From Bacilli bacterium (GTDB lineage: Bacteria; Bacillota_I; Bacilli_A; RF39; UBA660), in the NCBI GenBank assembly GCA_017484065.1, contig JAFUTX010000009.1, forward strand, positions 23,952 through 87,951: a stretch of 64,000 bases of DNA, written 5' to 3'. Made by a program: the position numbers and the translations under genes. Of this stretch, positions 22,889 through 51,867 are shown piece after piece. The notes under the pieces were generated by a model. The model made no database searches and had not been told where the DNA came from. It saw only the letters and a list, made by a program, of their open reading frames with translations. How positions within the stretch are numbered: position 1 is the first letter of the stretch; each line of letters starts with the position of its first letter.

Positions 22889-24037
22889 TTAAATTGTTAA
22901 TTTATATGGTTTATTTGCTGAACCATTTGAATTTGGTCCAGCTACTATTTTAACTGTTGATTTAAGGTATGCTACTGGACGAATGTCGAATAAATAATAT
23001 GATGAAGTATCGTAAATATGCCCTAAAGTATTAATATAAATTATATTAGTTGTATAATTAGCAGCTGATGTCATTGTCCATTGATGCCAACTTGAATCTA
23101 ATAACCAATCACTATTTCTGCAAGGTTCATTTGTACTACTATCCCAATTACGAAGTGCTATTGTTCTACAACTATTTCCTGATACTATTCCGCTACTTGC
23201 ATAACCATAATCACTTGGATACATTAAACCTAAATTACCTGACCATGTTATCAAATTATTGTTACCAACATTTGTTCTTTCTGCTTCATACCATTTTGAG
23301 TTTATCATTGTTGTACCATCAAAACTTCCATTGTTATTCCATGTATATCCTCCTAGATAATATGTTGCACTTTCTATTAAGTTTTTAGATATATTATTTA
23401 AACCATTAGTTGTAAAGTCAATTGCAGAGGTTGGATAATCTCGACCTTGTCCTGTAGCATATCCATGATATGCAGCATGAGTTCCATTATTGTAATAATT
23501 TGTTAATACTTCATTAATTGTACTATTTGGCCAATTATTATTATATCTTCTAGATGAACATGTATATGTTCCATCTCCATTATCTGTCCAGTTTTCATCT
23601 GCACAACTATCATAGAAAGGGAAGTTTCCTAAGCTTTCAGCTCTAATAAGTTTTACTCTACTAGCCCCATCTCCTGATACTTCTCCACCATCTATATTAT
23701 TCATTACACCAATAATGCGCCATAGTTCATTATTAAACTTAACATAATTATTCGGATTCGCTCCCATATATCTTATATTTTCATCTGGTGTATCATCTAT
23801 AAACATTGTATCAGGGTTATCTTCAACTATACTTGTTAAATACTCTACGGCATTAACTGGTTCTACTACTTTACCATTTATCATTTCATAGCTATCACTT
23901 ACTACTTCAAATTTAGCATAACTGTTGTATAGTTTTATTCCAATTACAATTAATGTTAATAAACATATACTTACTAACAATGTATTTCTTTTACGATTAT
24001 CTTTTATTCGATAATCAAATCTATGTAGGCGACTCAT
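22889..24037 (-). CDS. Membrane-anchored secreted protein, paralog A of the 49025-50179 gene
   Basis: 382 aa. Signal-anchor TM at residues 20-40. Near-identical to paralog B over the first approx 200 aa, diverged mid-region, conserved C-terminal motif PVAYLKS.VKIVAGPNS.GSA.KPYKLTI. Confidence 0.6.
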   Translation of the reverse strand: MSRLHRFDYRIKDNRKRNTLLVSICLLTLIVIGIKLYNSYAKFEVVSDSYEMINGKVVEPVNAVEYLTSIVEDNPDTMFIDDTPDENIRYMGANPNNYVKFNNELWRIIGVMNNIDGGEVSGDGASRVKLIRAESLGNFPFYDSCADENWTDNGDGTYTCSSRRYNNNWPNSTINEVLTNYYNNGTHAAYHGYATGQGRDYPTSAIDFTTNGLNNISKNLIESATYYLGGYTWNNNGSFDGTTMINSKWYEAERTNVGNNNLITWSGNLGLMYPSDYGYASSGIVSGNSCRTIALRNWDSSTNEPCRNSDWLLDSSWHQWTMTSAANYTTNIIYINTLGHIYDTSSYYLFDIRPVAYLKSTVKIVAGPNSNGSANKPYKLTI

Positions 24038-24262
24038 TGTTGTTCACCTACTAAAGTATTAGAAAGGCATCTTATTTTATTATAAAGATACCCCCCCCCT
24101 ATTGCTTAAAATCATATTTAACAACACCTTTCACTTTAAAATTCGTATATTTTTTTACACACAAATTCTATTTTTATCTAAAATAATAATATCATTACTC
24201 TCAACAAAAAACAACAAAAAAAGATATTGCAATGAGTGAATATCTTTTATATAATTATATTA
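24038..24262 (-). promoter_or_regulatory. Conserved leader cassette A with a G9-tract uORF (24115..24080, MILSNRGGVSL*)
   Basis: RBS-like GAAAGGTG 9 nt before the uORF ATG. C9 on the plus strand at 24091-24099. The same architecture recurs at 35498-35727 and 50180-50345. Confidence 0.6.
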
Positions 24263-24480
24263 GTAGAACGTTTAGGTTTCAACTAGACGGCTACATTTTG
24301 TGACCATCTAATCTAGATGGTTTTTGCAATTAATAGGATAATTATAGCTAGTAGTGCAGTCTCTAGCAACTTATGATAGAATTTATCGCTCATAAGTATC
24401 CCTCCTCTCATCAAGAAAAGTTAGGTATTACCAAAACCACCCTGAATAAGAGTAACCATCAACTAAATGTTCTGATGTTC
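24258..24480. repeat. Diverged copy of the approx 210-bp inverted-repeat element (see 35728-35936)
   Basis: Shares 5' flank ...tattgcaat...ttttatataattatatt.gtagaacg and 3' flank ...gttctgatgttctattata...aatttcaaccgattcgacaaatgttg with the two copies at 35.7-36.4 kb. Confidence 0.45.
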
Positions 24481-24613
24481 TATTATAGATAAAATATTGT
24501 GAATTTCAACCGATTCGACAAATGTTGTAATCATAAAAAAAGAAATAGCAATTGCTATCTCTTAGATATTATTCTTCAACTTATTTAATCTAAATCATTA
24601 AACATAATTGAAG

Positions 24614-31700: not shown

Positions 31701-31897
31701 CTATCTTTAATAGATTTAGCAAGTACATGGTGAATACCCGGTTTAGCATTAGCATAAATAGGTCCATCGTAGAATACAAAATCTTCACAATCTTTTCTAT
31801 TCTCAATTGTTTTTTCTAAAATATTCTCTTCTTTCCATCTTTTAGCAATTTCTGATTCAACTTCATTAGTATTTCTCTTATCTAGCTCTTCAAACAT
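28799..31897 (-). CDS. ileS: Isoleucyl-tRNA synthetase
   Basis: Class I HIGH-type (PGIHH at the HIGH position) and KMSKS motifs, editing domain, C-terminal Zn-binding region. True start MFEELDK at 31897 after an AGGAGG RBS. The track ORF start at 31960 runs into the T-box terminator. Confidence 0.95.
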   Translation of the reverse strand: MFEELDKRNTNEVESEIAKRWKEENILEKTIENRKDCEDFVFYDGPIYANAKPGIHHVLAKSIKDSFCKYKTMQGYRVLRKIGLDTHGLPIEVNVEKKLGFKTKADIENFGVENFCKECNKSTAENIDEVNKVTDMMGQFIDTDHPYITCSNEYIETEWWLIKQIYEKGLLYHGNKVLWYCPRCGTELSANEVSQGYEETSVNTVIVPLKKVDEDVYFLAWTTTPWTLIANVAICVNPELTYIKAESLGNKFILAESLADKVLGEDYKVLETYKGKDLVGEKYEQLMPFVSVEGKCHEVIADEYVTASDGTGIVHIAPAFGDDDNRVCQKNGIGFINPVGLDGCYTEGPWKGRLVTDKDLEIDIIKWLKENDKLFKKLKITHDYPHCWRCHSALISYPKPAWYVKTTEYKDKIIEANSKVNWYPSYVGEKRFNNWLENMVDWGISRNRYWGCPLPVWTNEETGEVYVVESREELQKLAIEDIDVYNMELHRPYIDNVHIKSPKTGDTLTRVTDVLDVWFDSGAMPYAEFHYPFENKELFESQFPADFIAEGVDQTRGWFYVLLVISTIISGESSFKNVVVNDMVLDGNGKKMSKSVGNIIDPIKALSEYGADNVRWYMFYASPVWTPLRFDINGLKEVYSKFFNPLKNTYNFFSLYANTDNIDINECNVLVKEREDIDRWLISKYNKLLKYVTESYEEYDLNKVVRSITNFVSEDLSNWYIRRNRNRFWGNTLDNSKKSVYITTYEVLVGLSQMIAPIVPFLSEEMYKKLTKEDSVHLSDFPKYNVELIDEELEEKMDLVRDLISIGRNIREEVKIKVREPLKEVLLDGKLQNKITDFINLIKEELNVKNVVFIDDLSKYMNFNVKPNFKVVGKVFGPNIKEYQQKLLELSNDDIKALENNETIKMNIAGVDYDINLEMVDIRIESKEGFDVAEENNKFVILNTERTKELILEGLAREFISKIQNMRKEKEFNVADRIKIHYNSDSEFDEMISKFGELVSSETLATEIIKSDNNFNKLNVNDHEVACDIEKI

Positions 31898-31914
31898 CTT
31901 TTTTCCTCCTTCAA

Positions 31915-32110
31915 AATAAAAAGATGATACCAAAAAGGACGAAATTATCCGTGGTACCACCTTTATTTATACTCTTTTTGTTAACGCAGTAGACCTGCGA
32001 GACTTTCTTACTAAATTTCAGAAATCCAACTCCCAAGTGATTTTCTATTAACCAATTTATCTATTTCCACCAACCATAGACTCTCTATTAAATTCAAATT
32101 AATATACTCT
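31915..32110 (-). promoter_or_regulatory. T-box riboswitch leader (Ile specifier AUC) for ileS
   Basis: Minus-strand RNA carries the T-box AAAGGUGGUACCACGG. A terminator hairpin with a UUUUUAUUUU run follows. The stem I specifier loop reads AUCA-CUUGGGAGUUGG. Confidence 0.8.
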
Positions 32111-32172
32111 TCTTGCTCATAATTTTTTAAAATTATAAACCTATTATAGTATTAAAATATGCAAAATGCAAA

Positions 32173-34252: not shown

Positions 34253-35497
34253 TTAGTTAGGTATCCAGTTAGCAGTATAAGTTCTATTACCTGTACTACC
34301 TTGTGGTATTGTTACAGAAGTTTGTTTATCTATATATGGTTCCCAATCAGTTGCAATATCTCCTTCTTCTAGTTGAATTCTATATACTCCTTCATAACTT
34401 TTTATCATTATTCCTATATTATTTGACTCTGATAATGTGAATGTTCTTGTAACATTTTCCATATTAAATATAGGTACAGCTAATATATGATTATTATTAA
34501 AATCATAGAAATTTATTCCTCCATATTTAGAGACCAACTCACTAGATGGAATTGTAATAAAATTTAAAGATAATGTATAGTCACCTTGAGACAATCCTAC
34601 TTTACCATTATTTCTATCATAACTCCAACCACGATCATCACTACCATTAGGTGTACTACGATAAACATATCCATTTTCATCTACTTCATATCCAACATTT
34701 ACTGCACTGGTGCTTAATTCATTATAATTCAACAAGTTCTTACCACCACTCCATCCTGCAAAGGTGTATCCTTCTTTAGTTGGATTACTTATGCTAAATG
34801 TTGTATCGTTTTCATCATATTCATTTCTATTTATTTTGGTAAGTATTCCTCCATCTAAATCATACGTTATATGCCATTTAGTTGGATTACTATTTTCTGG
34901 TTCATTAACATTGTTTATTTCTATCTTACTTTCAAATGTTTTATTATTAATATCTTCATAAGGTGTATCTTCATCTATCCATAAATATAGATTATATTCT
35001 TTGGTAGTGTTTCCATCTATCTTTTCTATCTCTAATTTCTTAGCAGTATTATATCCATCTATATTTATTTCATTACTATCTGATAATTCACTTATTTGTG
35101 ATGGCCATACTATATAATCATTATCACTTATTAAAGATAATCTTAAATTGTTTGTTAATAATGTATTACTACTTTTCATATCTAATTGAATACTAACATA
35201 TTCATCTTCACTACAATTATTAGTTATTTTAAATGTGTATGGTACTTGTTCTAGGGCTTCATGATCACTTAGTTGATAAGAATTAACTAAGTTTATTGGT
35301 TTATTATCGTTAACTACTAAATCTAAACAGCTAATATTTACTTGATTGAAACCTTCTTGTTCTTCTGTAGCAGACCATAAAGCGTAACTATAACTGCTTA
35401 TAATTATTACAAGTATAGCTACTATTATTGTACTTATTATTATCTTTTTATTTTTATTATTCTTTTTTAAATAAAGATTTTTACCCCTGATTGTCAT
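34253..35497 (-). CDS. Membrane-anchored surface protein with Listeria-Bacteroides-type repeat (GYTFAGW)
   Basis: 414 aa. Signal anchor. C-terminal KEGYTFAGWSGG...RTYTANW matches the Listeria/Bacteroides repeat domain. Shares its 5' leader cassette with the two paralogs. Confidence 0.55.
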   Translation of the reverse strand: MTIRGKNLYLKKNNKNKKIIISTIIVAILVIIISSYSYALWSATEEQEGFNQVNISCLDLVVNDNKPINLVNSYQLSDHEALEQVPYTFKITNNCSEDEYVSIQLDMKSSNTLLTNNLRLSLISDNDYIVWPSQISELSDSNEINIDGYNTAKKLEIEKIDGNTTKEYNLYLWIDEDTPYEDINNKTFESKIEINNVNEPENSNPTKWHITYDLDGGILTKINRNEYDENDTTFSISNPTKEGYTFAGWSGGKNLLNYNELSTSAVNVGYEVDENGYVYRSTPNGSDDRGWSYDRNNGKVGLSQGDYTLSLNFITIPSSELVSKYGGINFYDFNNNHILAVPIFNMENVTRTFTLSESNNIGIMIKSYEGVYRIQLEEGDIATDWEPYIDKQTSVTIPQGSTGNRTYTANWIPN

Positions 35498-35727
35498 AGG
35501 TTTTCACCTACTAAAGTTTTAGAAAGGCTTATATTGTTATTACAAAGCCCCCCCCCGATTTTGATTTTTAGCCATAATTCAACAACACCTTTCATTTTTA
35601 AAATTTGTGATTTATTTTACCCACAAATTCTATTTTTATCTAAAATAATAATATCATTACTCTCAACAAAAAACAACAAAAAAAGCTATTGCAATAAATG
35701 AATAACTTTTATATAATTATATTGATA
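35498..35727 (-). promoter_or_regulatory. Conserved leader cassette B with a G9-tract uORF (35575..35540, MAKNQNRGGAL*)
   Basis: C9 at 35548-35556. GAAAGGTG RBS-like element 10 nt before the uORF ATG. About 150 nt further upstream is nearly identical to cassette A. Confidence 0.6.
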
Positions 35728-35936
35728 GAACGCAAGTTTTTCAGCGGCTATCGAAATGTTTGATATCCACCTATTAGGTGGTTTTTATTTAGTATAATAT
35801 TAGTAAAACTATTATTATAAAAAACAAGACAATTATAAATACTGGATTAATATCTTTCTTCAGTACCATCACCTGCACTTTCCATTGAATTATAAAACCC
35901 CCTGAAAAGCCGGAAAGCCGCCTAAGGCTTGCGTTC
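35728..35936. repeat. Approx 209-bp element with 9-bp terminal inverted repeats (GAACGCAAG...CTTGCGTTC), copy 1; MITE-like or structured ncRNA
   Basis: Perfect 9-bp TIR plus inner complementary GCGGCU/AGCCGC. AT-rich interior with a CCACC-tatta-GGTGG hairpin. Second copy at 36134-36341, diverged copy at 24258-24480. Confidence 0.55.
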
Positions 35937-36133
35937 TGATGCTCTATAATATATAAAAAAAATTGGAATTTCAACTGATTCGACAAAAGTTGTCAAAACT
36001 TATCAAATAACGACAAGTTTTTATGTTAAATACTAATTAACACTATTACTCATGCTTATTTTTGTTGACATTTTTTATTTAACAAAAAAAGTTATTGCAA
36101 TTAATCAATAAATTTTATATAATTATGTTGATA

Positions 36134-36341
36134 GAACGCAAGTTTTTCAGCGGCTATCCGATTTGGATATACCACCTATTAGGTGGTTTTTATTTAGTAT
36201 AATATTAGTAAAACTATTATTATAAAAAACAAGACAATTATAAATACCGGATTAATATCTTTCTTCATAACTATCACCTGCACTTTCCATTGAATTATAT
36301 AACCCCCTGAAAAGCCGGAAAGCCGCCTAAGGCTTGCGTTC
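36134..36341. repeat. Approx 208-bp inverted-repeat element, copy 2 (approx 95% identical to copy 1)
   Basis: Same TIRs and interior as 35728-35936. The flanks (approx 50 bp on each side) are also duplicated, giving an approx 320-bp direct repeat with a period of approx 406 bp. Confidence 0.55.
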
Positions 36342-36410
36342 TGATGTTCTATTATAAGTATAAAAATCTAAATTTCAACCGATTCGACAAATGTTGCCAA
36401 AACTTGTCAA

Positions 36411-37742
36411 TTATCGATGTTTATTAATTAACTCTTTTGATTTTTGATATTGATTTTCAAATCTATGACATAACTCATGATGACATAAATCATATTCAAC
36501 TTCCGGATCATTTTCATCATATATAAAATCAGCATCAATGATAACGATATCGCCTTTTTTTAATTGTTCACCACCAATATATGGTTGCAATCCTAATGAC
36601 CCATCAGATACTGGTAGATTTTTTCTCCAGTATCTTTTATTATCTTTTAATAAAATACCAACATTATCTAGTAATACATCAGTCCATATTAAACCAATAT
36701 CTCTTACCTTTTTATAAATCTCATATAAATCATTTTCATCTATTTTAGTATTCGTATCAACTCTTTCGCAAACTTCAATAAATATACTATTTAAATCGTC
36801 TATTTCTATTTTCTTACGCAATAGAGGTGCTACTATATATGGATTATTAGAAAATGTATCATTATTTCTATTAACTCCAAATTTAAAAACTTTTTCACCA
36901 ATTAATAAAGCTGTTGAAAAACTTCCATCACCAATTTGTTTGATATCTGTAATATCTATATTTTCATTGGCACATATATCTTTGATAACTAAATAAATTA
37001 TTTCAATACTGGAATTAATAGTATTTTTTTCTAATTCACTAAAAGAATGATAATCTAAACGATTTAGCAAGCATTTATTAACAAGTGCTGTTATTCTTAG
37101 TTTAGAATTAATAGTTATTTCATTATTTATAATATCTTTGTAATCTTCTCCTAATAAATCTTTTAAATAGAATAAATCTATTGTATTAGTTTGTAATATT
37201 AAATCAAGATTATCTTTAAATAAATATGTATAATCATGGGTATTTATTATAGAATTAATATATTCTAAAGTTGAATTGGTGTATTTTTTATTAGTTAGTA
37301 AAGAAATTAACATAGTTGGAATATAGTCTTTATAATTATCAAAAATTATTAAATATAAATAATTAATTACACATATATTGGTATAATTATAATTAAGATT
37401 TAATATTTTATTTAATAATTTAATACATTCTTCATTAGTAAGCTTATATACAGATATCACCTTAAGTATATTATATATACATTTTTCTAAAGAACTTGCT
37501 GGTATTTTATCTAAATTATCAATAAATACATTTAAAATATCTTTATTATTAAATAGTTTTGATATTTCATTTATCCAAGGATAACTAAATACTCCAGTTA
37601 ATTCACACATTAAAGGAATATTTTCTATTATTTGTTCATATTGATGTTCTTCTATTGCTTGTTTTAAAGCACCTGTTATAGAATAATAGTTATTATTTCC
37701 AGCTTTAATTCTAGTTCTTAATATTTCCTTTCTTAAATTCAT
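36411..37742 (-). CDS. Hypothetical protein (443 aa), possible kinase-like fold
   Basis: Intact ORF. Glycine-rich IGDGSFSTALLIGEKVFKFG and HHELCHRFEN loosely recall a kinase G-loop and catalytic loop. Confidence 0.4.
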   Translation of the reverse strand: MNLRKEILRTRIKAGNNNYYSITGALKQAIEEHQYEQIIENIPLMCELTGVFSYPWINEISKLFNNKDILNVFIDNLDKIPASSLEKCIYNILKVISVYKLTNEECIKLLNKILNLNYNYTNICVINYLYLIIFDNYKDYIPTMLISLLTNKKYTNSTLEYINSIINTHDYTYLFKDNLDLILQTNTIDLFYLKDLLGEDYKDIINNEITINSKLRITALVNKCLLNRLDYHSFSELEKNTINSSIEIIYLVIKDICANENIDITDIKQIGDGSFSTALLIGEKVFKFGVNRNNDTFSNNPYIVAPLLRKKIEIDDLNSIFIEVCERVDTNTKIDENDLYEIYKKVRDIGLIWTDVLLDNVGILLKDNKRYWRKNLPVSDGSLGLQPYIGGEQLKKGDIVIIDADFIYDENDPEVEYDLCHHELCHRFENQYQKSKELINKHR

Positions 37743-37803
37743 AAAAAAACACCCCTTCTTTATATATGGGTGTTATTATAACATAATTATTATTTATTGC
37801 AAG

Positions 37804-39966
37804 TTAACTTGTCTTTAATAGAGATAAACTCACCTTTTGTTTATCAACATGTATTTCATCAACATAACAATCAACTATATCTCCAACACTTAATACATCA
37901 CTAGGATGTTTAATATATTTATCAGTTATTTTAGATATATGAACTAAACCATCATTATGTAATCCTATGTCAATAAATGCTCCAAAATCTACAACATTAC
38001 GAACTGTACCTTGTAATTTCATACCAACTTTTAAATCTTCAATGGATAATACATCACTTTTAAGTAGTGGTTGAGGCATTTCATCACGAGGGTCTCTATT
38101 AGGGCTTATTAATGATTTAATAATGTCTTCTAAAGTATATATATCTGTATTAAGTTTTTTAGAATATTCATTAATATCAATGTTTTCTAACTTTTTCTTT
38201 AAAGTATCAGTACCAATATCTTTTAAAGTTAAATCTAATTCTTTTAATAAATTAAGTGTTACTTCATAACTTTCAGGATGGATTCCTGTTTCATCTAATA
38301 TATTAGTACCTTCAGTAATTCTAAGAAAACCTATAGCTTGTTCAAAAACTTTATCACTAAGTAATTTTTTCTTCTTAATTTCATCTCTTGAGTTAATACG
38401 TCCATGTTCTTCACGATAATTAATAATCTTCTCGATATTTTTCTTAGTAATACCTGCTACATAAGAAAGTAACGAAGTTGAAGCAGTATTTATATTTACT
38501 CCAACACTATTAACAGTTTTACTAACAACAAAATCTAAACTTTCTTTTAAATTTTTTGCAGATACATCATGTTGATATAATCCAACACCAATTCCTTCTG
38601 GTGGTATCTTAACTAGTTCTGATAATGGATCTTGTAATCTTCTACCAATGCTTACAGCACTACGTTTCTCTACTTCTAAATCTGGGAATTCTGAAATTGC
38701 TAATTTAGAGGCACTATAAATAGATGCTCCGGCTTCACTAACAATAACATATTTACAATTCAAATTATATTCTTTTATTAATTCACTACAGAATTTCTCA
38801 CTTTCACGAGATGCAGTACCATTACCAATAGCAATTAAATCAACATGATATTTATTAATTAATGCTACTATTTCCATTTTATATCTTTTTAGTAAATCAT
38901 CATTTATATTTTTCAAGAAAGGTTTAATTACGGTTGAATCTAAATACTTACCATTCTTATCAACTACTGCTATTTTACAACCATTAACAAAACCAGGGTC
39001 AAACGCAAGAACAATCTTTTCTTTCATTGGAGGTTGTAAAAGTAAACTTTCTAAATTCTTACTGAAATTAGCTATTGCAACTTCATCAGCCTTCTCTTTT
39101 AGTTCTGCTCTAATCTCTCTTTCTATACTTGGATATATTAACCTAATTAAACTATCAGCTATAGCATCTTTAATCATCTCATTACATTCACTATTATCAT
39201 GTTTAATTACTTTTTCATTTAAAAAATCAATTATCTTATCTTTATCTACATCAATACTAATTGATAATACATTTTCTTTTTCACCACGATTCATTGCTAG
39301 TATTCTGTGAGATTTAACATATTTAACAGGTTCTTGATAAGAATAATACATCTCATAAGTCTTATTTTCATCATTAGCATTCTTTTTTATTTTAGATTCA
39401 ATCACACCATTTTTATAAACGTAACCTCTTATCCATTTACGATAATAAGAATTATCAGATACATATTCACTAATAATATATTTAGCACCAGTTAGCGCCT
39501 CTTCTATTGTTGGTACTTTATCATTTATATATTTACTAGCAATAGTTTTAATATTGTCTTTACCAGCCATTATTTGTTTAGCTAAAGGCTCTAATCCATT
39601 GTTAATAGCTTCAGTAGCTTTAGTCTTTTTCTTTTCTTTATATGGACGATATATATCTTCTATTTCAACCAACTTTTGGCATTTTAAAATACTATTTTTA
39701 ATTTCATCAGTTAACATACCCTTTTCATCGATTAACCTTATTACGTCTTCTTTTCTTTTTTGTAAATTAACTTGATAATCATATACCTCTCCTATTTTAC
39801 GTATTTGTTCTTCATCTAGATTACCAGTAGCATCTTTTCGATAACGTGCTATAAAAGGAATAGTATCACCATCTGCAAGCATTTTTAATGTAGTTTCTAC
39901 TTGCTTGGCACTAACTCCTAACTCTTTACTTATTTCTATAATAATATCATTGTTCACTTTGCACAC
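37804..39966 (-). CDS. tex: Transcription accessory protein Tex (YqgF/HhH/S1 domains)
   Basis: 720 aa. Characteristic Tex N-terminus ...VSAKQVETTLKMLADGDTIPFIARYRKDATGNL. C-terminal S1 domain. Confidence 0.9.
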   Translation of the reverse strand: MCKVNNDIIIEISKELGVSAKQVETTLKMLADGDTIPFIARYRKDATGNLDEEQIRKIGEVYDYQVNLQKRKEDVIRLIDEKGMLTDEIKNSILKCQKLVEIEDIYRPYKEKKKTKATEAINNGLEPLAKQIMAGKDNIKTIASKYINDKVPTIEEALTGAKYIISEYVSDNSYYRKWIRGYVYKNGVIESKIKKNANDENKTYEMYYSYQEPVKYVKSHRILAMNRGEKENVLSISIDVDKDKIIDFLNEKVIKHDNSECNEMIKDAIADSLIRLIYPSIEREIRAELKEKADEVAIANFSKNLESLLLQPPMKEKIVLAFDPGFVNGCKIAVVDKNGKYLDSTVIKPFLKNINDDLLKRYKMEIVALINKYHVDLIAIGNGTASRESEKFCSELIKEYNLNCKYVIVSEAGASIYSASKLAISEFPDLEVEKRSAVSIGRRLQDPLSELVKIPPEGIGVGLYQHDVSAKNLKESLDFVVSKTVNSVGVNINTASTSLLSYVAGITKKNIEKIINYREEHGRINSRDEIKKKKLLSDKVFEQAIGFLRITEGTNILDETGIHPESYEVTLNLLKELDLTLKDIGTDTLKKKLENIDINEYSKKLNTDIYTLEDIIKSLISPNRDPRDEMPQPLLKSDVLSIEDLKVGMKLQGTVRNVVDFGAFIDIGLHNDGLVHISKITDKYIKHPSDVLSVGDIVDCYVDEIHVDKQKVSLSLLKTS

Positions 39967-40150
39967 CTACTCTATAAATTTCATACTTATTTAGTATAAT
40001 TGATTGAAAAGTAGTTGTCAATTAACTATCACAAAAATTAAATATTAACAAACTATTTTGTTGCAAATGCAACACCAAGTGTTTTTTTGTTATAATGCTA
40101 TTCCATTTATTATTTTTAGTGGTATACTATTAAAATGGAGGTAGTAAAAT

Positions 40151-42385
40151 ATGAAGTATAATGAATGGAACAATTTTAAAGAAGGTAAATGGTGTAATGA
40201 AATAAACGTTAGTGACTTTATTTTAAATAACTATACTCCTTATAAAGGGGACGAAACCTTTTTAAGCAATAAAACTAATAAAACTGATAAAGTATGGAAA
40301 AAGTGTGAGACTTTATTAAAAGAGGAATTAAAAAAACATGTATTAGATATTGATGTAGATACAATGTCTGGTATTAATGCTTTTAAACCTGGATATATAG
40401 ATAAAGAAAATGAAGTTATTTTTGGACTTCAAACCGATGCTCCACTAAAAAGAATAATTAATCCTTATGGTGGAACTAGAATGGTTTACCAAGAATTAGA
40501 AGCTTATGGTTATAAACTTAATCCAGATGTAGATAAGTATTTTAATACATTTAGAAAAACTCATAATCAAGGTGTATTTGATGCTTATACTAATGATATT
40601 AGAGCTGCTAGACACGTAGGATTATTAACTGGTTTACCAGATGCTTATGGCCGTGGACGTATCATTGGTGATTATCGTCGTATTGCTTTATATGGTATTG
40701 ATTACTTAATGGAGCAAAAAAAGAATGAATGGGATAACGAAGTAATTGTTGAAATGAGTGAAGAAATCATTCGTAAACGTGAAGAGTTATCTATGCAATA
40801 CAAAGCTTTAGATGAAATAAAGAAAATGGCAGCTGGTTATGGATTTGATATTTCTAAACCTGCTAAAAACTCATTTGAAGCTGTTCAATGGACTTATTTT
40901 GGGTATTTAGCAGCTGTTAAAGAAAATAATGGTGCTGCTGAAAGTATTGGTCGTGTTGATGCATTCTTTGATATTTATTTTGAAAGAGATTTAGCAAATG
41001 GTGTAATTACTGAAGAACAAATCCAAGAATTAATCGATCAATTTGTAATTAAATTAAGACTAATTAGACATTTAAGAACTCCAGAATATGATGAATTATT
41101 CTCAGGAGATCCTACTTGGGTTACTTGTAGTTTAGGTGGTATGGCTTGTAATGGTGAAACTTTAGTTAATAAAACATCTTATAGAATATTACATACACTA
41201 ACTAACTTAGATCCTGCTCCAGAGCCTAACATGACAGTATTATATAGTGTTGATTTACCAGAAAATTACAAAAAATATTGTGCTAAAATGTCAATTAATA
41301 CAGATGCTGTACAATATGAAAATGATGATTTAATGCGCCCTATTTATGGTGATGATTATGCTATAGCTTGTTGTGTATCAGCAATGCGTGTAGGTCGTGA
41401 TATGCAATTTTTTGGAGCACGTTGTAATTTAGCTAAAGCACTACTTTATGCTATTAACGGTGGAGTTGATGAAGTTAAAGGCGGAGTTATCTTAAAAGAT
41501 ATTCCTAAAATAGAAGATGATATTTTAGATTATGAAAAAGTAAAAGACGCATATTTTAAAGTATTAGAGCGTGTTGCTAAAGTATATAGTGATGCAATGA
41601 ATATAATTCACTATATGCATGATAAATATGCTTATGAAGCAAGCCAAATGGCTTTACACGATACTGATGTTCATAGATATATGGCTTATGGTGTAGCTGG
41701 CTTATCTGTAGCAGCAGACTCTCTTTCAGCCATTAAACATGCTAAGGTTAAACCTATTCGTAACGAAGAAGGTATTGCAATAGATTTTCAAGTTGAAGGA
41801 GATTATCCTAAATATGGTAATGATGATGATCGTGTAGATAATATTGCAAAAGAAATTTTAGAAAAGATGGTAACTGAATTAAGAAAGCACAAAACATATC
41901 GTAATGCTGAAGTTACTATGTCTGTTCTAACTATTACTTCAAATGTAGTTTATGGTAGTAAAACTGGTTCTACTCCAGATGGTAGAAAAAAAGGTGTTGC
42001 ATTTGCTCCAGGTGCTAATCCAATGCATGGTAGAGATGCTAGTGGTGCACTTGCTAGCTTAAATTCAGTAGCTAAACTTGATTACGCTAATTGTTGTAAA
42101 GATGGTATATCTAATACTTTCTCTATAGTTCCTACTACATTAGGTACTGATATGCCAAATAGAATTGACAATTTAGTTGGATTACTAGATGGTTATTTTT
42201 CTCAAGGTGCACATCACTTAAATGTTAATGTTTTAAATCGTGAAACTTTAATTGATGCAATGAATAACCCCGATAAATACCCACTACTTACAATAAGAGT
42301 ATCTGGATACTCTGTAAGATTTAATCGTTTAACTAGAAAACAACAAGAAGAAGTTATAGCAAGAACCTTCCATGAAAAGATGTAA
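40151..42385 (+). CDS. pflB: Pyruvate formate-lyase (formate C-acetyltransferase)
   Basis: 744 aa. N-terminal ...[19 protein letters not shown]. Active-site Cys-Cys pair (MACNGE-type) and C-terminal glycyl-radical motif RVSGYSVRF. Confidence 0.95.
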
Positions 42386-42387
42386 TT

Positions 42388-43107
42388 ATGAAAGGTAGTA
42401 TTGCTTCGATTGAAACCTTTGGGCTTGTAGATGGTCCAGGTATTAGAACTGTCGTATTCTTAAATGGTTGTACACTTCGCTGTAAATATTGTCATAATCC
42501 AGAAATGTTTGCTATGCAACAAATGAACTATACTTCAGAAGAATTAGTAGAAAAGATTTTACGTTTTAAACCATATTTTAAAAGAAATAATGGTGGAGTT
42601 ACTTTCTCCGGAGGAGAAGCTCTATTACAAGTTGATTTTCTGATTGAAGTATGTAAATTATTAAAAAAAGAAAATATTCATATTGCTTTAGATACCGCCG
42701 GAGTTGGTGTTGGCAAATATGAAGAATTACTTAAATACATAGATTTAATTTTATTTGATGTTAAACATACTGACCACGATAAATATAAAGAACTAACTGG
42801 TCGTGATGATAGTGAAAGTTTCAAGTTTTTGAGTGTTGCTAACAAACTTAATAAAGATTTTTGGATTAGGCAAGTAATTGTACCAGGTCTTATGGATAAC
42901 CATGAATATTTAATTAGTTTAAATGAATATTTAAATAAGAATATTAAAAATGTAAAAAGAGTTGACTTTCTACCCTATCACAAATTAGGTAGTGAAAAAT
43001 ATGAAAAATTAGGCATACCATACCCTTATAAAGATAAACCTGAAATGGATAAAGATAAATGCAATAAGCTATATGAAGATTTTATGAAAATCTATAAAAA
43101 TAACTAG
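42388..43107 (+). CDS. pflA: Pyruvate formate-lyase activating enzyme (radical SAM)
   Basis: 239 aa. CxxxCxxC cluster (CTLRCKYCHNPE). Immediately downstream of pflB. Confidence 0.9.
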   Translation: MKGSIASIETFGLVDGPGIRTVVFLNGCTLRCKYCHNPEMFAMQQMNYTSEELVEKILRFKPYFKRNNGGVTFSGGEALLQVDFLIEVCKLLKKENIHIALDTAGVGVGKYEELLKYIDLILFDVKHTDHDKYKELTGRDDSESFKFLSVANKLNKDFWIRQVIVPGLMDNHEYLISLNEYLNKNIKNVKRVDFLPYHKLGSEKYEKLGIPYPYKDKPEMDKDKCNKLYEDFMKIYKNN

Positions 43108-43135
43108 TTCAAAAATGAACTAGTTATTTTATTTG
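43104..43135. terminator. Bidirectional terminator between pflA and the convergent 88-aa gene
   Basis: CTAGTTCA-aaaa-TGAACTAG palindrome followed by TTATTTTATTT. Confidence 0.55.
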
Positions 43136-43402
43136 TTAATACATATATTTATAAATAAAGAATACTACTAAGATGAGAATCACTAATATAGATATAATAG
43201 CAAGTATTGCTCCTATACTACTTTGTTTATCATGATTTTCATAATTATAATTTTGATTATATATTTTATTAACAGGATTAATATTGTTATCTTTATTAAA
43301 TTGTTTTTGAAATTCTATTTGATCTTGACTCATCATTGCACCACAACCGCGACATATATAACTATTATTTGGTAATGCAGCACCACACTTCTTACATTGC
43401 AT
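43136..43402 (-). CDS. Small zinc-ribbon membrane protein
   Basis: 88 aa. CxxC...CxxC (CKKCGA...CRGCGA) then a C-terminal TM helix. Confidence 0.4.
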   Translation of the reverse strand: MQCKKCGAALPNNSYICRGCGAMMSQDQIEFQKQFNKDNNINPVNKIYNQNYNYENHDKQSSIGAILAIISILVILILVVFFIYKYMY

Positions 43403-43407
43403 TTATT

Positions 43408-44037
43408 TTACTCCTTTTCAGCTTTTAAATAATTTATTTTTATACCTTTACTACTAAACTTATCTTCATATTCCGTAGTTTCATTATCAATCTCACTATT
43501 AGCTAAATCTAAAGATATTTCAGTTATTTTATATCCCGCTTGATTTAAATTTACTATACTACTCTCAAATAACCCAACATTATCAGTTTTTTGTCTTATA
43601 ATCTTTTTATCAACAAATATATTTTCATAGCTTTTTAAATAAGTACCACTAGTTAATCTTCTTTCACTGTGTCTAGTTTTAGGCCATGGATCTGAAAAAT
43701 TAAGATATAAACAACTTATATTATGATTAAATATTTTACTAACATCAATAGCATCCATGTTAATAACTCTAATATTATTAATCTCATAATCATTAATTTT
43801 ATTAATTGCCCTTGCTAAAACATTTTCATATTTTTCAATACCAATAAAATTTATATTAGGATATTTCATTGCCATTTTAATTAAAAATTGCCCTTTGCCC
43901 ATACCTATTTCTAAATGAATTGGATTATCATTATCAAATAGTGTACAAACATCTAAATTATCTATATCTTTAATTAAATAATTGCAATTACTAATTATTT
44001 CATCTTTATTTTTTAAATTTCTAAGTCGCATAAACAA
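43408..44037 (-). CDS. trmB: tRNA (guanine46-N7)-methyltransferase
   Basis: 209 aa. The SAM-binding HLEIGMGKGQF motif and overall length fit TrmB. Confidence 0.8.
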   Translation of the reverse strand: MFMRLRNLKNKDEIISNCNYLIKDIDNLDVCTLFDNDNPIHLEIGMGKGQFLIKMAMKYPNINFIGIEKYENVLARAINKINDYEINNIRVINMDAIDVSKIFNHNISCLYLNFSDPWPKTRHSERRLTSGTYLKSYENIFVDKKIIRQKTDNVGLFESSIVNLNQAGYKITEISLDLANSEIDNETTEYEDKFSSKGIKINYLKAEKE

Positions 44038-44089
44038 TCACTACTTTCTTAAAATAAACATATAATAGAATTGTAAGGGAGGAAATCTC

Positions 44090-44431
44090 ATGAAGAAGAA
44101 TCGTAATGCTTTCTTTAGTGAAGCACAAATGAGTACACAAAGTTATTATCCGCAACAACCTATTATGATGAACCAAGCTGCACCTTATCAAGCAGCACAA
44201 TCAAGTCAAAGTTTCTATGCTGGACCTAGCATACCAGCTAATTACAATAATCAACCTAACAATACTAATTATGGTTATGATTATTCTACTACAAATGATA
44301 TAGAAACTAGATTATCTAAGATTGAGCGCCAGCTAAATAGAATAGATGCCAGATTAAATAAACTTGAATCTAATACATATTATACTACAGATATAACTGA
44401 AAACTCAAATACTTCATTATATATGGTCTAA
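44090..44431 (+). CDS. Hypothetical Gln/Asn/Tyr-rich protein with C-terminal coiled coil
   Basis: GGGAGG RBS before the ATG. Low-complexity N-terminal half. RLSKIERQLNRIDARLNKLE heptad region. Confidence 0.45.
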   Translation: MKKNRNAFFSEAQMSTQSYYPQQPIMMNQAAPYQAAQSSQSFYAGPSIPANYNNQPNNTNYGYDYSTTNDIETRLSKIERQLNRIDARLNKLESNTYYTTDITENSNTSLYMV

Positions 44432-44452
44432 CTTACTTTAAGGTAAGTTTTT

Positions 44453-44623
44453 TTAACTATAGATTATCATAGCTGAAAAACAATATATTTGTTCTTCACT
44501 AAACATTGAAATAGATACTTGATATTTAATATCTATAACTTCTCCACTTAACTTTGATAGGAACTCATTTATTTTTTGTTCTAGATCTTTTTCATGACTT
44601 TCATCAAATATTTTAACTTTCAT
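44453..44623 (-). CDS. Cse60-like small sporulation protein
   Basis: The segment MKVKIFDESHEKDLEQKINEFL resembles the Cse60/YteV family (approx 60 aa). GGTGA RBS before the ATG at 44623. Confidence 0.45.
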   Translation of the reverse strand: MKVKIFDESHEKDLEQKINEFLSKLSGEVIDIKYQVSISMFSEEQIYCFSAMIIYS

Positions 44624-44683
44624 TATAATCACCAATTATATTGTAATACATGAGTATTAAAAAAAATGTCGAATTAAGACATT

Positions 44684-45802
44684 TTAGTTAAAATTAAATG
44701 AATTTAATATTATTTCATTATCATTTTCACAGTTACTTTCATTTTGATAATCAAATTCATAGAAATACAATTTATCATTATGAACTGATGTATAGTATTT
44801 CTTATTAGTATATTTTTCACTAGTTAGGTTAGTGTTATACCAAGTAATACTATTATAATCAACTGTAGTAATATCACTACTTTTATAATAATCTTCATTA
44901 TTATCAGTGTAACTTTGTAACCAACTAGTTGCAGCATTATCTGTAAATACTGGATAACTACTAATATTAAATGAACAAGAATTATTTTTAGTTCGATAAT
45001 ATTTAAAATTTTTAATACTACTATTATAGATAGTATATCCAGCAGGTACTTTATAGTTTAACTCATCTATTTTAGCATCCTCTTCACTAGTTTTGTATTC
45101 ATCATCATAATCATCATCGTAATCATCATCGTAATCGTAATCATATTCTATACCGTATTTGTTAAGGTAATCTTCTATTTTTTTACTAGAAGATGAATTG
45201 TAACCATCTATAATACCAACTGTAAACAAAAATACTAAGAAAACAATTATTAAAATAATAAATACCATCCATAAAACGCCAAGAATAACAGGAGCTGCTA
45301 TATTAGTACCACCCTTTTTAGCACAAATACTCTCTAGTTCGCTTGTTGGTAATCCGTGATTACTATTTTTTATTTGATTTACTCTATTCTTTACTTGGTT
45401 TAAATAAATATCTTTAAATTTAATACTAATAACTAAATGTAAAACAAATATTGCTAATGTACCCATTCCTCCAAATAACAATGCAAAAAATGGAATTACT
45501 ATCATTATTAGGAATGCAAACAAATATAGCTTACGATACAAGAAGTAAAATCCTCTTAAGAAAAAATATGGTACTGAAAAAGATGTATTCATTATTTTTT
45601 CATAGTTAGGACCTATATAAGCTTTAATTAATCTTTCATCATCAGTTAAATAATCATTACTAGTTTGTGGATTATTATTAATTTCTTTATCTTCTACTTT
45701 TACTTCACTAGTTATATTCTCATACATTAAATTAGCTCCACAATTTTGACAGAATTTATCTCCGGGTTTTATATTTTCATTATCACAATATCGACATTTC
45801 AT
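44684..45802 (-). CDS. Zinc-ribbon plus TM protein with acidic DY repeat
   Basis: Probable start MKCRYCDNEN... (CxxC...CxxC) after an AGAGGT RBS. Two TM helices. DYDYDDDYDDDYDDEY tract. Confidence 0.45.
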   Translation of the reverse strand: MKCRYCDNENIKPGDKFCQNCGANLMYENITSEVKVEDKEINNNPQTSNDYLTDDERLIKAYIGPNYEKIMNTSFSVPYFFLRGFYFLYRKLYLFAFLIMIVIPFFALLFGGMGTLAIFVLHLVISIKFKDIYLNQVKNRVNQIKNSNHGLPTSELESICAKKGGTNIAAPVILGVLWMVFIILIIVFLVFLFTVGIIDGYNSSSSKKIEDYLNKYGIEYDYDYDDDYDDDYDDEYKTSEEDAKIDELNYKVPAGYTIYNSSIKNFKYYRTKNNSCSFNISSYPVFTDNAATSWLQSYTDNNEDYYKSSDITTVDYNSITWYNTNLTSEKYTNKKYYTSVHNDKLYFYEFDYQNESNCENDNEIILNSFNFN

Positions 45803-45895
45803 CACTAATACCTCTTTCTCTTTTAATATAATATCATACTTTTTAAAATATATGAAAAAAACATAATAAATAGAAAAAGAGATTATCAATAATCT

Positions 45896-48310
45896 CTATT
45901 TAACTACTATATTAACTATTTTCTTAGGAACATAAATAAATTTGACAATATTTAATCCCTCAGTGTATTTAGTTACATTTTCTAATTTTAATACTTTTTC
46001 TTTAACAGTTTCACTATCATCGTCATCATTAACTTCAATTTCTGCTCTTAATTTACCATTGACTTGAACTCCAACTGTAACTACTGTATCTATAGTTTTG
46101 TCTTCATCATAAGTTGGCCATGGTTCATTAACTATTGAATTGTTATGCCCTAATTTTTCCCATATTTCTTCAGTAATAAATGGTGTAATTGGATTTAATA
46201 ATTTAACAAAACCTTCAGCATAATCCCTTGGTAATACTTCTTCTTTGTAAACAGCATTAATAAAAATCATTAACTGACTAATAGCGGTATTAAAACTTAA
46301 CTTTTCAAAATCTTCAGTAACTTTTTTAACTGTTTGATGATATACCTTTTCTAAATTTTTATTTTCTTTATCTTGAATTTTATCACTTTCATATACACGC
46401 CATACTCTTTCCAAGAACTTTTTAGAGGCTTCTACCCCTTCATCACTCCATGGTTTATCAGCTTCAATAGGCCCCATAAACATTTCATATAATCTTAAAG
46501 TATCAGCACCATAATCTCTAATAATATCACTTGGATTTATACAATATTTAGGGAATCTTTTACCCATTTTAATACCATTTGCTCCTAAAATCATTCCTTG
46601 ATGAACTAATTTTTGGAATGGTTCTTCTACTGGAGAAATTCCTTTTTCATATAAGTATTTATTCCACATTCTAGAATATAGTAAGTGTCCTACTGCATGT
46701 TCAGGTCCACCCATATACAAATCTACTGGCATCCAATATTTAAGTAATTCTTTATCAGCTAACTCTTCGTTATTATGAGGATCAATATATCTTAAGAAAT
46801 ACCAGCTTGACCCTGCTGAACCAGGCATTGTAGATGTTTCTCTTTTTCCTTTTTTACCGTTGTAAGTAATATTAACCCAATCTAGAGCTTTAGATAAAGG
46901 AGAAGAACCGGTCTTACTTGGTGAATAGTCTTGTAATTCTGGTAATACTAATGGTAAATCTTTATCATCTAATACTCCAATAGTACCATCTTCATAATGA
47001 ATTATAGGAATAGGTTCACCCCAATATCTTTGACGAGCAAATATCCAATCTCTTAAACGATAATTATTCTTTTTACGACCTACTCTTAAATCAATTACTT
47101 TATTAGTAATAGCCTCTTTAGCGTCTAGTACATTCATTCCACTAAATTCTTCTGAATTAATTAATTTATAGTTTTTATTTAAATAATCTTGCTTTTCAAA
47201 GGCATGTTCTTCTATAGACTCACCATCAATTACTTGAATTATTGGAATATTATAAACTTTAGCATACTCATAATCTCTTTGATCATGCGCAGGTACAGCC
47301 ATAACTGCCCCTGTTCCGTAACTAGCTAAAACAAAGTCACCAATATAAATAGGTACTTCTTTATTATTAACTGGATTAATAGCATAAATACCTTTTAAAG
47401 GACATCCTGTTTTTTCTTTATTAAGTTCAGTACGATCTAAATCAGATTTTTTAGCAGTTTCTTCACGATATTTTACTACCTCATCCCAGTTTTCGATTCT
47501 ATCTTTTAATTCATCAATAAGCTTATTTTCTGGAGCTAATACCATAAATGTAATACCATAGATGGTTTCTATACAAGTTGTAAAAATTGAGAAGGAACCT
47601 CCACCAACAATATTAAAATCAACCTCTACTCCAGTAGATTTACCTATCCAATTTCTTTGGATTTCTTTAGTAGATTCTGGCCAATCAAGACTATCTAATC
47701 CTTCTAATAATTTATCAGCATATCTTGGTATATCTATTACCCATTGCTTCATATTTTTACGAACTACAGGAAATCCTCCACGTTCACTTTTACCATCAAT
47801 TATTTCATCATTAGCTAGTACTGTACCTAATTCTTCACACCAGTTAACTGGCATATCTTTATATTCTGCTAAACCATCTTCATATAATTTTTTAAATATC
47901 CATTGTGTCCATTTATAATAATTAGGTTCACAAGTTGATACTTCTTTATCCCAATCATAAGATAAACCTACTTCTCTTAGTTGACGTTTAAAAGTTTTTA
48001 TATTGTCAATTGTAAAGCCACTTGGATGGTTACCAGTTTTAATAGCATATTGTTCTGCAGGTAACCCAAATGAATCAAATCCCATTGGATGTAATACATT
48101 GTATCCTTGCATTCTTTTCATTCTAGCAATTATATCAGTAGCAGTATATCCTTCAATATGACCACAATGTAAAGCTACCCCTGATGGATAAGGAAACATA
48201 TCTAAAACATAGTATTTAGGTTTGCTAAAATCATGGACATCAGTTCTAAAAGCATCTATTTCTTCCCATTTATTTTTCCATTTATCTTCTATTTCTTTGT
48301 AATTATACAC
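45896..48310 (-). CDS. leuS: Leucyl-tRNA synthetase
   Basis: 804 aa. Class I HIGH-type (HCGH at the HIGH position) and KMGKR motifs, CP1 editing domain. AAGGA RBS. Start overlaps the stop of the upstream small ORF. Confidence 0.95.
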   Translation of the reverse strand: MYNYKEIEDKWKNKWEEIDAFRTDVHDFSKPKYYVLDMFPYPSGVALHCGHIEGYTATDIIARMKRMQGYNVLHPMGFDSFGLPAEQYAIKTGNHPSGFTIDNIKTFKRQLREVGLSYDWDKEVSTCEPNYYKWTQWIFKKLYEDGLAEYKDMPVNWCEELGTVLANDEIIDGKSERGGFPVVRKNMKQWVIDIPRYADKLLEGLDSLDWPESTKEIQRNWIGKSTGVEVDFNIVGGGSFSIFTTCIETIYGITFMVLAPENKLIDELKDRIENWDEVVKYREETAKKSDLDRTELNKEKTGCPLKGIYAINPVNNKEVPIYIGDFVLASYGTGAVMAVPAHDQRDYEYAKVYNIPIIQVIDGESIEEHAFEKQDYLNKNYKLINSEEFSGMNVLDAKEAITNKVIDLRVGRKKNNYRLRDWIFARQRYWGEPIPIIHYEDGTIGVLDDKDLPLVLPELQDYSPSKTGSSPLSKALDWVNITYNGKKGKRETSTMPGSAGSSWYFLRYIDPHNNEELADKELLKYWMPVDLYMGGPEHAVGHLLYSRMWNKYLYEKGISPVEEPFQKLVHQGMILGANGIKMGKRFPKYCINPSDIIRDYGADTLRLYEMFMGPIEADKPWSDEGVEASKKFLERVWRVYESDKIQDKENKNLEKVYHQTVKKVTEDFEKLSFNTAISQLMIFINAVYKEEVLPRDYAEGFVKLLNPITPFITEEIWEKLGHNNSIVNEPWPTYDEDKTIDTVVTVGVQVNGKLRAEIEVNDDDDSETVKEKVLKLENVTKYTEGLNIVKFIYVPKKIVNIVVK

Positions 48311-48965: not shown

Positions 48966-49024
48966 TTTTTTCATCTGCCATTAAATGTATTATAATTGAT
49001 TTATTAAGAAAATACAAGAGTGTT

Positions 49025-51852: not shown

Positions 51853-51867
51853 AATTCTTCCTCCCAA

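Follow-up and report, generated by a model that had tools for sequence, protein, structure and literature searches.

What is the function of the tandem intergenic repeat that spans positions 35675 to 36417 of the 64,000-nt stretch of Bacilli bacterium DNA analyzed here (contig JAFUTX010000009.1, positions 23,952 to 87,951; 27% GC), from here on called the window? A preliminary description of this region had pointed out two nearly identical copies with short terminal inverted repeats, as well as a diverged third copy, and had considered a miniature transposable element, a structured cis-regulatory RNA and a part of the machinery that mobilizes nearby leader cassettes. Judging from sequence comparison and predicted RNA folds, we consider it likely that each repeat unit is a self-contained type I toxin-antitoxin (TA)-like module, probably representing a new sequence family of a well-known kind. 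The architecture suggests as much because it combines convergent promoter-like sites, a tiny hydrophobic open reading frame (ORF) on a long, locked predicted mRNA, a short predicted antisense RNA in the 3' untranslated region (UTR) of that mRNA and the presence of tandem, dispersed and decayed copies. Below, B1 and B2 refer to the tandem pair, A refers to the diverged copy in the window, and C and remnant D refer to copies in the same genome but outside the window.

Architecture of the repeat unit

The core of the direct repeat (35767-35961 versus 36172-36366) is 95% identical over 195 nt, which bears out the ~95% identity described before, and the left (35675-35752 versus 36081-36158) and right (35958-36013 versus 36362-36417) parts are 94% and 84% identical, respectively. 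On the basis of these coordinates and of the repeat period of 404 to 406 bp, the repeat unit measures ~340 bp, with a unique spacer of ~65 bp separating the B1 and B2 units. The terminal inverted repeats (GAACGCAAG...CTTGCGTTC) are indeed present and extend to 10 bp when the flanking A/T is counted; the B-type cores are bounded by AGAACGCAAG...CTTGCGTTCT, and both the CCACC-TATTA-GGTGG hairpin and the inner GCGGCT/AGCCGC pair that had been noted occur in each of them. A 26-nt flank motif (AATTTCAACCGATTCGACAAATGTTG), previously described as common to three copies, was found at three sites in the window when up to two mismatches were allowed and at none in 100 shuffles. The third of these sites marks unit A (~24200-24535), located 11.5 kb from the B pair. 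This diverged copy, earlier placed at 24258-24480, is real, and its likeness to the B copies resides mainly in the flanks (78 to 86% identity with B1); its interior is only ~61% identical to that of the B copies, encodes a different peptide and carries a terminal repeat (GAACGTTTAG/CTAAATGTTC) unlike the B-copy sequence. All coordinates in the preliminary description were accurate.

The conserved flanks turned out to consist of facing sigma-70-type promoter-like sites, one per strand. On the plus strand, TTGCAA-17-TATAAT would direct transcription from a site a few nucleotides ahead of AGAACG; its minus-strand counterpart, TTGAAA-16/17-TATAAT, the -35 element of which is part of the AATTTCAACCGATTCGACAAATGTTG motif, would do so from a site a few nucleotides ahead of the other AGAACG. 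The hexamers are kept across A, B1, B2 and C (the differences being TTGCAA/TTGTAA and TATAAT/TATTAT), while the spacers vary freely. In addition, the CCACC/GGTGG hairpin with its T5 tract reads as a plus-strand intrinsic terminator that closes a unit of ~65 nt; a terminator scan called two terminators, solely of this kind, against 0.3 expected. The minus strand has no U-run after the same hairpin and runs on through the second AGAACG arm to an AU-rich hairpin with six or seven U's, which overlaps the plus-strand -35 element. In all complete copies, the ~65-nt plus-strand unit, with its conserved promoter and strong intrinsic terminator, lies within the 3' UTR of the predicted minus-strand mRNA. 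The predicted antisense RNA is perfectly complementary to this 3' UTR, including the 3' arm of the closing helix described below, and opens with the same 10 to 25 nt as the mRNA itself (AGAACGCAAG...GCGGCU). Upstream of the toxin -35 element, three TTGNCAA-like repeats (TTGACAA, TTGGCAA and TTGTCGAA) with 10-nt phasing are kept in every copy, though only in part in A; this array might bind a regulator or act as an UP-like element.

Tandem repeats within one intergenic region formed the basis of a published screen for type I toxins, together with a peptide length of 16 to 70 amino acids (aa) and at least 10 hydrophobic residues out of 15 (Fozo et al. 2010; PMC2887945). Our ORF test used the same length range (16 to 70 codons) and hydrophobicity (≥10/15) and added a strict Shine-Dalgarno (SD) 5-mer ending 4 to 11 nt upstream of an ATG. 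On both strands of the whole 64 kb, four ORFs passed, two of which are those of A and B2, with the other two located within long genes; the A and B2 ORFs are, in other words, the only intergenic ORFs in the window with an SD, an ATG and a hydrophobic stretch. The chance pass rate, estimated from sequences simulated with the dinucleotide statistics of the modules, was 0.3 to 0.7% per module. An SD, an ATG and a hydrophobic ORF are found at the matching minus-strand position in A, B2 and C. All module peptides fall within the limits used by Fozo et al., with 13 to 15 hydrophobic residues in the best stretch of 15 (all 15 in the case of B2), and the peptides, 24 to 26 residues long, consist of a short polar N terminus and one predicted membrane-spanning stretch. 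The ORFs of A and C share their length of 26 codons; six codons differ by synonymous changes only, the stop codon changes from TAG to TAA, and the nine replacements are mostly hydrophobic for hydrophobic. Plus-strand ORFs within the modules were dropped, as they either begin upstream of the predicted plus-strand start or are absent from C.

Besides the ORF, a G-rich, SD-like motif (UUCAGGGGG, UUCAGGGUGG or UUCAAGGGGG) was observed ~30 to 40 nt into every toxin-type 5' UTR, including that of remnant D. Upstream ORFs of twelve codons are also present, MVTLIQGGFGNT in A and MATLFQGGFWYL in C, and a B-type upstream ORF of the same length, MESAGD(G/S)(T/Y)EERY, overlaps the toxin start. The motif or upstream ORF might serve as a standby site or as a coupling ORF, comparable to mok in mok/hok.

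Predicted RNA structure, mechanism and further copies

According to the predicted folds, the first 10 to 12 nt of the mRNA (AGAACGCAAG for the B type and AGAACGUUUAG for A and C) pair with a stretch just before the terminator, so that what had been described as terminal inverted repeats would be the 5'-3' closing helix of an mRNA. This helix counts 10 to 12 bp in all four complete copies (a perfect 12 bp in C), and the folds of the four predicted minus-strand mRNAs have z-scores of -4.4 to -7.9. When the element alone is folded, the minus strand is 12 to 20 kcal/mol more stable than the plus strand in 4/4 copies, with z-scores of -5.0 to -8.0 (minus) versus -2.7 to -6.1 (plus) and about twice as many G-U pairs. 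Because energies, z-scores and G-U counts all favor it, the large structure is, in these models, a minus-strand one. Hence, of the earlier suggestion of a structured RNA, the ~200-nt domain closed by the terminal and inner pairs stood, and the strand did not, the minus strand not being the one that had been read. Pairing is, moreover, maintained among paralogues where both sides have changed. Past its invariant AGAAC(G), the closing helix reads UUUAG/CUAAA in the A/C type and CAAG/CUUG in the B type, with four positions changed on both sides; in the antisense terminator stem, a U-A pair of the A/C type corresponds to C-G in the B type, and one position of the mRNA terminator stem is occupied by U-G, A-U or U-A in different copies. 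The start codon lies inside local secondary structure in the predicted folds, with an unpaired probability of ~0 for the AUG in A, C and B2, and the SD is partly paired (unpaired probability, 0.30 to 0.64).

In the well-studied txpA/RatA and bsrG/SR4 systems of Bacillus subtilis, antitoxins overlapping the 3' end of the toxin mRNA act through RNase III-dependent decay and induced refolding (PMC3834814, PMC6562991), and it is by analogy with these two systems that we propose the following mechanism. The minus-strand promoter would give rise to a highly structured mRNA of ~260 nt, encoding a membrane peptide of 24 to 26 residues, and the convergent plus-strand promoter would yield an antisense RNA of ~65 nt that is stopped at the CCACC/GGTGG hairpin and its U-run. 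Starting from contact between complementary hairpin loops, the antisense RNA would pair with the mRNA 3' UTR to form a duplex of ~65 bp. Because both RNAs start with the same sequence, this binding would have to displace the mRNA 5' end from the closing helix. Consistent with such a displacement, the first 11 nt became more likely to be unpaired when antisense binding was modeled, with probabilities of 0.01-0.11 before and 0.44-0.52 after binding in three of the four copies; B1 barely changed (from 0.10 to 0.15). The duplex would then mark the mRNA for RNase III and 5'-end-dependent decay, and little peptide would be made; upon loss of the antisense RNA, the stable, closed mRNA would persist and the membrane peptide would be produced.

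By walking out from the paralogues of the neighboring surface-protein gene and from truB, we reached two further copies. Copy C (L040:7561..7244), 72.7% identical to A over 322 nt, is located between the 3' end of ligA, with which it is convergent, and an unrelated gene. The two promoters (TTGAAA-16-TATAAT and TTGTAA-17-TATAAT), the two terminators and an ORF of 26 codons (MSDKSFHKLLIIILICVIILLIEKTI) are all found in C. Remnant D (L048:10893-11025), downstream of truB, is a decayed B-type copy in which the promoter and 5' UTR (with AGAAAGCAAG replacing AGAACGCAAG) are fused directly to the inner 3' arm GATAGCCGCT, and which has lost its ORF, antisense unit and outer 3' arm. Module copies are thereby found at unrelated loci, next to a BrkB-family gene (directly after the terminator of which module A begins), a 443-aa gene, ligA and truB, and the homology between them ends exactly at the U-run. 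The window itself recurs in several gut-type metagenome assemblies at 99.99 to 100% identity. One of these (L001; ERZ27256833) is 99.99% identical to window positions 47742..35676 and diverges exactly after the B1 U-run (window position 35676; L001:12067) into fpg-dnaE, a pair absent from the window. Behind this divergence is either a genuine rearrangement at the module or the collapse, during assembly, of one more B-type copy located upstream of fpg. Other contigs end inside or beside modules.

Weighing the alternatives

Several observations weigh against a TA-like module. The well-spaced ATG of B2 reads CTG in B1, so the B1 copy may be weakened or may use a different start. Differences between the A and C ORFs are only mildly skewed by codon position (8/7/12). 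Promoter-like sites in the region number 12, compared with 9 expected; as such hexamers are common in DNA of 27% GC, the promoter argument rests on their conservation across copies. The AU-rich stems that would terminate the mRNA were not called by the terminator scan, and we infer the ends of both predicted transcripts from consensus motifs. Taken alone, the wobble pattern of the closing helix slightly favors the plus strand, given that what is a G-U pair on the plus strand in copy A is an A/C mismatch on the minus strand, and that the B copies could gain two U-G pairs on the plus strand. Modeled blocking of the 3' UTR caused no consistent change in the accessibility of SD or AUG and therefore lends no support to translational control by the antisense RNA; because the same modeling freed the mRNA 5' end in three of the four copies, we prefer decay control as the explanation. 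Finally, all comparative evidence comes from the four to five paralogues of one genome. No homologue was found outside the species in the genome, metagenome, plasmid, phage and protein collections searched, and there was no match to known toxin or antitoxin families (Fst/Ldr, Hok, TxpA/BsrG, Ibs, TisB and the antitoxin RNAs of Rfam).

As for the individual searches, the module peptides had no Pfam matches at E values up to 10 and only chance PTS matches in NCBIfam. Rfam gave nothing meaningful for the module RNAs (window and L040 at the gathering threshold, module regions at E values up to 10), its matches elsewhere being T-box leaders and noise only, and no tRNA or tmRNA was predicted by ARAGORN. 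Eight ORF variants were looked up as exact sequences in a collection of 15 billion proteins, where none of them occurred, and a phmmer search with the 33-aa ORF against 1.84 billion representative proteins returned no matches. Scanning genome, metagenome and viral contigs for the toxin-promoter 19-mer produced only chance matches in coding or high-GC DNA, the antitoxin-promoter pattern had no matches in viral contigs, and blastn and tblastn searches of plasmids and phages revealed nothing but a chance 55-nt match in a parA gene. The walks yielded C and D from the same genome, with no module copy found in another species. This failure outside the species fits with, and may be explained by, the distance to the nearest TruB relative among 5.8 billion proteins, which is only 64 to 66% identical.

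Since toxicity is a prediction only and the peptides match no known toxin family, the modules might instead encode an ordinary small membrane protein under the control of a cis-antisense RNA and would then not be functional TA systems; indeed, some of the candidates predicted by Fozo et al. were not toxic when overproduced (PMC2887945). We consider this unlikely, as tandem multi-copy occurrence, decayed copies, rapid sequence turnover and a heavily locked mRNA are hallmarks of type I toxin loci rather than of small housekeeping proteins. Alternatively, the minus-strand RNA could be a noncoding structured leader or attenuator for the surface-protein genes and their cassettes, in which case the ORF would be fortuitous or encode a leader peptide. 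The location of A and B1, directly upstream (in the minus direction) of leader cassettes and the paralogous genes 22889-24037 and 34253-35497, would agree with such a role, as would the strong fold z-scores and a weak mRNA terminator that makes read-through conceivable. However, what lies downstream differs from copy to copy: a cassette gene in some cases, but another module after B2, the convergent ligA beyond C and, in L001, fpg, which has an extended -10 promoter to itself. No module accompanies the cassette at 50193-50264, which has a promoter-like site of its own, the C and D loci have no cassette, the SD and ORF are kept between A and C, and Rfam provided no match. The linkage between modules and cassettes is physical, not obligatory. 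These observations left us with little reason to retain the suggested role in mobilizing the cassettes, and we regard the leader function as quite improbable; a dedicated leader or riboswitch was rejected, the position upstream of a regulated gene not being constant.

A miniature inverted-repeat transposable element (MITE), or some other mobile element with the 9-bp terminal inverted repeats as its ends, seems a very improbable reading to us, even though inverted repeats exist, copies occupy several unrelated intergenic loci, and assemblies break or differ at the module edge. The inverted repeats vary among copies (GCAAG versus GTTTAG) and ~60 bp outside them is conserved on each side, which is the reverse of the pattern of a transposon; these flanks consist of convergent promoter-like sites, and the unit holds terminators, a ribosome-binding site and an ORF of its own. 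Reading of the junctions of A, B1, B2, C and D revealed no flanking direct repeats and hence no target-site duplications, A/C-type and B-type interiors are only ~61% identical, and no copy was found in any other genome or in the metagenome, plasmid and phage collections searched. A neutral, functionless segmental duplication of intergenic DNA could account for the adjacency and 95% identity of B1 and B2 and for the 136-nt flank, 91% identical, that A and B1 share and that runs into the leader cassette. It would not account for a core, predicted to be transcribed, that is 95% identical between B1 and B2 next to flanks that are only 77 to 78% identical, for distant paralogues that keep promoters, terminators, helices and ORF length despite sequence change, or for fold z-scores down to -8, and we find it hardly credible. 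The type I TA-like module remains the likely reading, and its predicted parts are listed in Table 1.

Table 1. Predicted parts of modules B2, B1 and A and other features of the region (window coordinates unless a locus is named)
Feature	Coordinates	Strand	Details
B2 toxin-type mRNA (predicted, ~260 nt)	36081..36343	-	Inferred start just before AGAACGCAAG, through AU-rich hairpin + U7; minimum free energy -78.5 kcal/mol, z = -7.9, 10-bp 5'-3' closing helix
B2 terminal repeats (closing-helix arms)	36133-36142, 36333-36342		
B2 ORF	36194..36268	-	MKKDINPVFIIVLFFIIIVLLILY, 24 codons + stop; SD AGGTGA 5 nt upstream of ATG
B2 toxin promoter + conserved upstream block	36351..36417	-	TTGAAA-16-TATAAT at 36378..36351
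B2 antisense unit	36095..36196	+	Promoter TTGCAA-17-TATAAT at 36095-36123; predicted ~65-nt RNA from ~36130
B2 antisense terminator hairpin + U-run	36171-36187	+	Predicted antisense RNA fold z = -2.9
B1 toxin-type mRNA (predicted)	35676..35938	-	Terminal repeats (closing-helix arms) 35928-35937 and 35727-35736
B1 mRNA terminator hairpin + U-run	35676-35708	-	mRNA fold -73.5 kcal/mol, z = -6.1
B1 ORF	35789..35869	-	MVLKKDINPVFIIVLFFIIIVLLILY; fails the SD-spacing test
B1 toxin promoter + conserved block	35946..36013	-	TTGAAA-17-TATTAT at 35974..35946; includes AATTTCAACCGATTCGACAAATGTTG motif
B1 antisense unit	35689..35790	+	Promoter 35689-35717; predicted RNA from ~35724; hairpin 35767-35781 + U5
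A toxin-type mRNA (predicted)	24208..24474	-	Closing-helix arms 24463-24473 and 24265-24275
A mRNA terminator	24216-24246	-	mRNA fold -69.8 kcal/mol, z = -4.4
A ORF	24313..24393	-	MSDKFYHKLLETALLAIIILLIAKTI, 26 codons + stop; SD GAGGAGGG 6 nt upstream of ATG
A toxin promoter + conserved block	24482..24527	-	TTGAAA 24509..24504, 16-nt spacer, TATAAT 24487..24482
A antisense unit	24227..24325	+	TTGCAA 24227-24232, 17-nt spacer, TATAAT 24250-24255; predicted RNA from ~24262
A antisense terminator hairpin + U5	24304-24320	+	Predicted antisense RNA fold z = -5.25
TTGNCAA-like arrays	36379-36417, 35975-36013, 24510-24527; L040:7532-7561		
G-rich SD-like motif	~36310-36300, ~35905-35895, ~24445-24435; L040 ~7470-7460	-	
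Leader cassettes in window	24048-24119, 35508-35579, 50193-50264	-	5' UTRs of genes 22889-24037, 34253-35497 and 49025-50179
Further leader-cassette sites outside the window	L034:266-274, L035:7402-7410, L038:9936-9944, L040:858-865		
T-box leaders	31932-32129, 48798-48983	-	125 and 101 bits, above Rfam gathering threshold
Apparent small Gly/Tyr/Pro/Asn-rich ORF	50354-50573	-	Between the 50193-50264 cassette and gene 50620-51888; own terminator-like hairpin ~50325-50345

Neighboring genes and comparison with known systems

On the RNA strand, the conserved leader cassettes carry a G9 homopolymer tract, directly followed by a hairpin and then by an SD; the hairpin shows compensatory changes (GGUAUCUU/AAGAUACC versus GGCUU/AAGCC), and the G tract, 9 nt long at seven of the sites read, measures 8 nt at one other. 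This tract could be a slipped-strand switch or a binding site for a protein or RNA. Genes 22889-24037 (-) and 49025-50179 (-), together with P0001-P0024, belong to a large family of 377- to 538-aa proteins without a Pfam domain, with at least 12 paralogues in the metagenome-assembled genome (IJ574_* tags) and more distant relatives numbering in the thousands; these proteins probably reside at the cell surface. A neighboring 414-aa protein contains a Flg_new (Listeria-Bacteroides repeat) domain. The two T-box leaders are located upstream of a 1053-aa tRNA-synthetase-type gene (28799-31960) and of a gene pair encoding 145 and 804 aa, respectively.

Among known systems, txpA/RatA, bsrG/SR4, bsrE/SR5 and yonT/SR6 of Bacillus subtilis resemble the modules in their Firmicute host, in the convergent arrangement of a hydrophobic-peptide mRNA and a short antisense RNA, in the complementarity at the mRNA 3' end and in the location of the SD or start codon in local structure, as well as in the expected duplex and RNase III action, with first contact via the terminator loop (PMC3834814, PMC6562991). 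They show no peptide or RNA sequence similarity to the modules, the peptides of which are, at 24 to 26 aa, shorter than the 58 aa of YonT. TxpA, BsrG and BsrE are also larger than 24 to 26 aa. The modules further differ in that the predicted ~65-nt antisense RNA lies wholly inside the mRNA 3' UTR, in the end-to-end closing helix, the 3' arm of which forms part of the antitoxin target, and in not being visibly located in prophages.

Plasmid R1's hok/Sok system and aapA1/IsoA1 of Helicobacter pylori, in turn, share with the modules an mRNA of similar length and long-distance pairing between its 5' and 3' ends; in aapA1 and hok, this end-to-end pairing within an mRNA of ~250 nt results in a compact, stable and poorly translated full-length form, and both systems occur in multiple copies on chromosomes, with inactivated copies reported for aapA/IsoA and hok/Sok (PMC5416894). 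In those systems, however, it is the 5' region that the antitoxin binds, the SD is sequestered by the long-distance pairing, and activation needs 3' trimming, whereas the predicted antisense RNA of the modules extends over the 3' arm itself and the SD lies outside the closing helix; the hosts, Proteobacteria and Epsilonproteobacteria, differ as well. The point that may be of most use to specialists is that the closing helix contributes its 3' arm to the predicted antitoxin target, so that the antitoxin would mimic the mRNA's own 5' end. One could go further and speculate that an undescribed type I TA family joins the end-to-end mRNA lock of hok and aapA1 with a Bacillus-style 3'-overlapping antitoxin, designs so far seen separately. 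In such a family, the antitoxin, by mimicking the mRNA 5' end, would compete for the 3' arm, and its binding would unzip the mRNA, expose the 5' end and trigger decay. That one promoter/UTR/terminator chassis carries two unrelated peptides (A/C type and B type) would further hint that the toxin ORF was exchanged in a modular fashion while the regulatory frame stayed fixed. We put such a family forward as a tentative idea that is, on the whole, rather doubtful.

Like the modules, ldr/Rdl (LDR repeats), ibs/Sib and zorO/OrzO of Escherichia coli were found as tandem intergenic repeats of a few hundred base pairs, each with a tiny hydrophobic ORF and a cis-encoded small RNA (PMC2887945). Their antitoxins, by contrast, overlap the 5' end or the ORF, they are not homologous to the modules, and they belong to another phylum. 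The B peptide resembles Ibs in size and composition, being very hydrophobic with a C-terminal aromatic residue. Par of Enterococcus faecalis pAD1 (Fst/RNA II) and the Fst/Ldr superfamily also offer a convergent pair in a Firmicute and a small, single-span peptide; the signature of Fst/Ldr, in which the membrane helix leads into a conserved Trp and then a charged tail, is absent from the module peptides, which have no Pfam or NCBIfam match. In par, too, the toxin and antitoxin RNAs share a terminator region. The predicted mRNA of the modules, however, reads through the shared hairpin to a second terminator, and its complementarity is continuous, whereas that of par consists of dispersed direct repeats.

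The proposed reading does not introduce a new principle: type I TA loci have classically been discovered by way of tandem intergenic repeats, as happened with LDR, SIB/QUAD and zor-orz. It does explain an otherwise unannotated intergenic repeat, and it flags the modules as sites where metagenome assemblies break or switch paths. If confirmed, the modules would add a type I TA family from a poorly known, uncultured, low-GC lineage of gut Bacilli. They would also, if the predicted pairing is true, provide a natural case of an antitoxin whose target takes in one arm of the end-to-end helix of the mRNA, which would be useful for studying the interplay of antisense pairing and mRNA locking.

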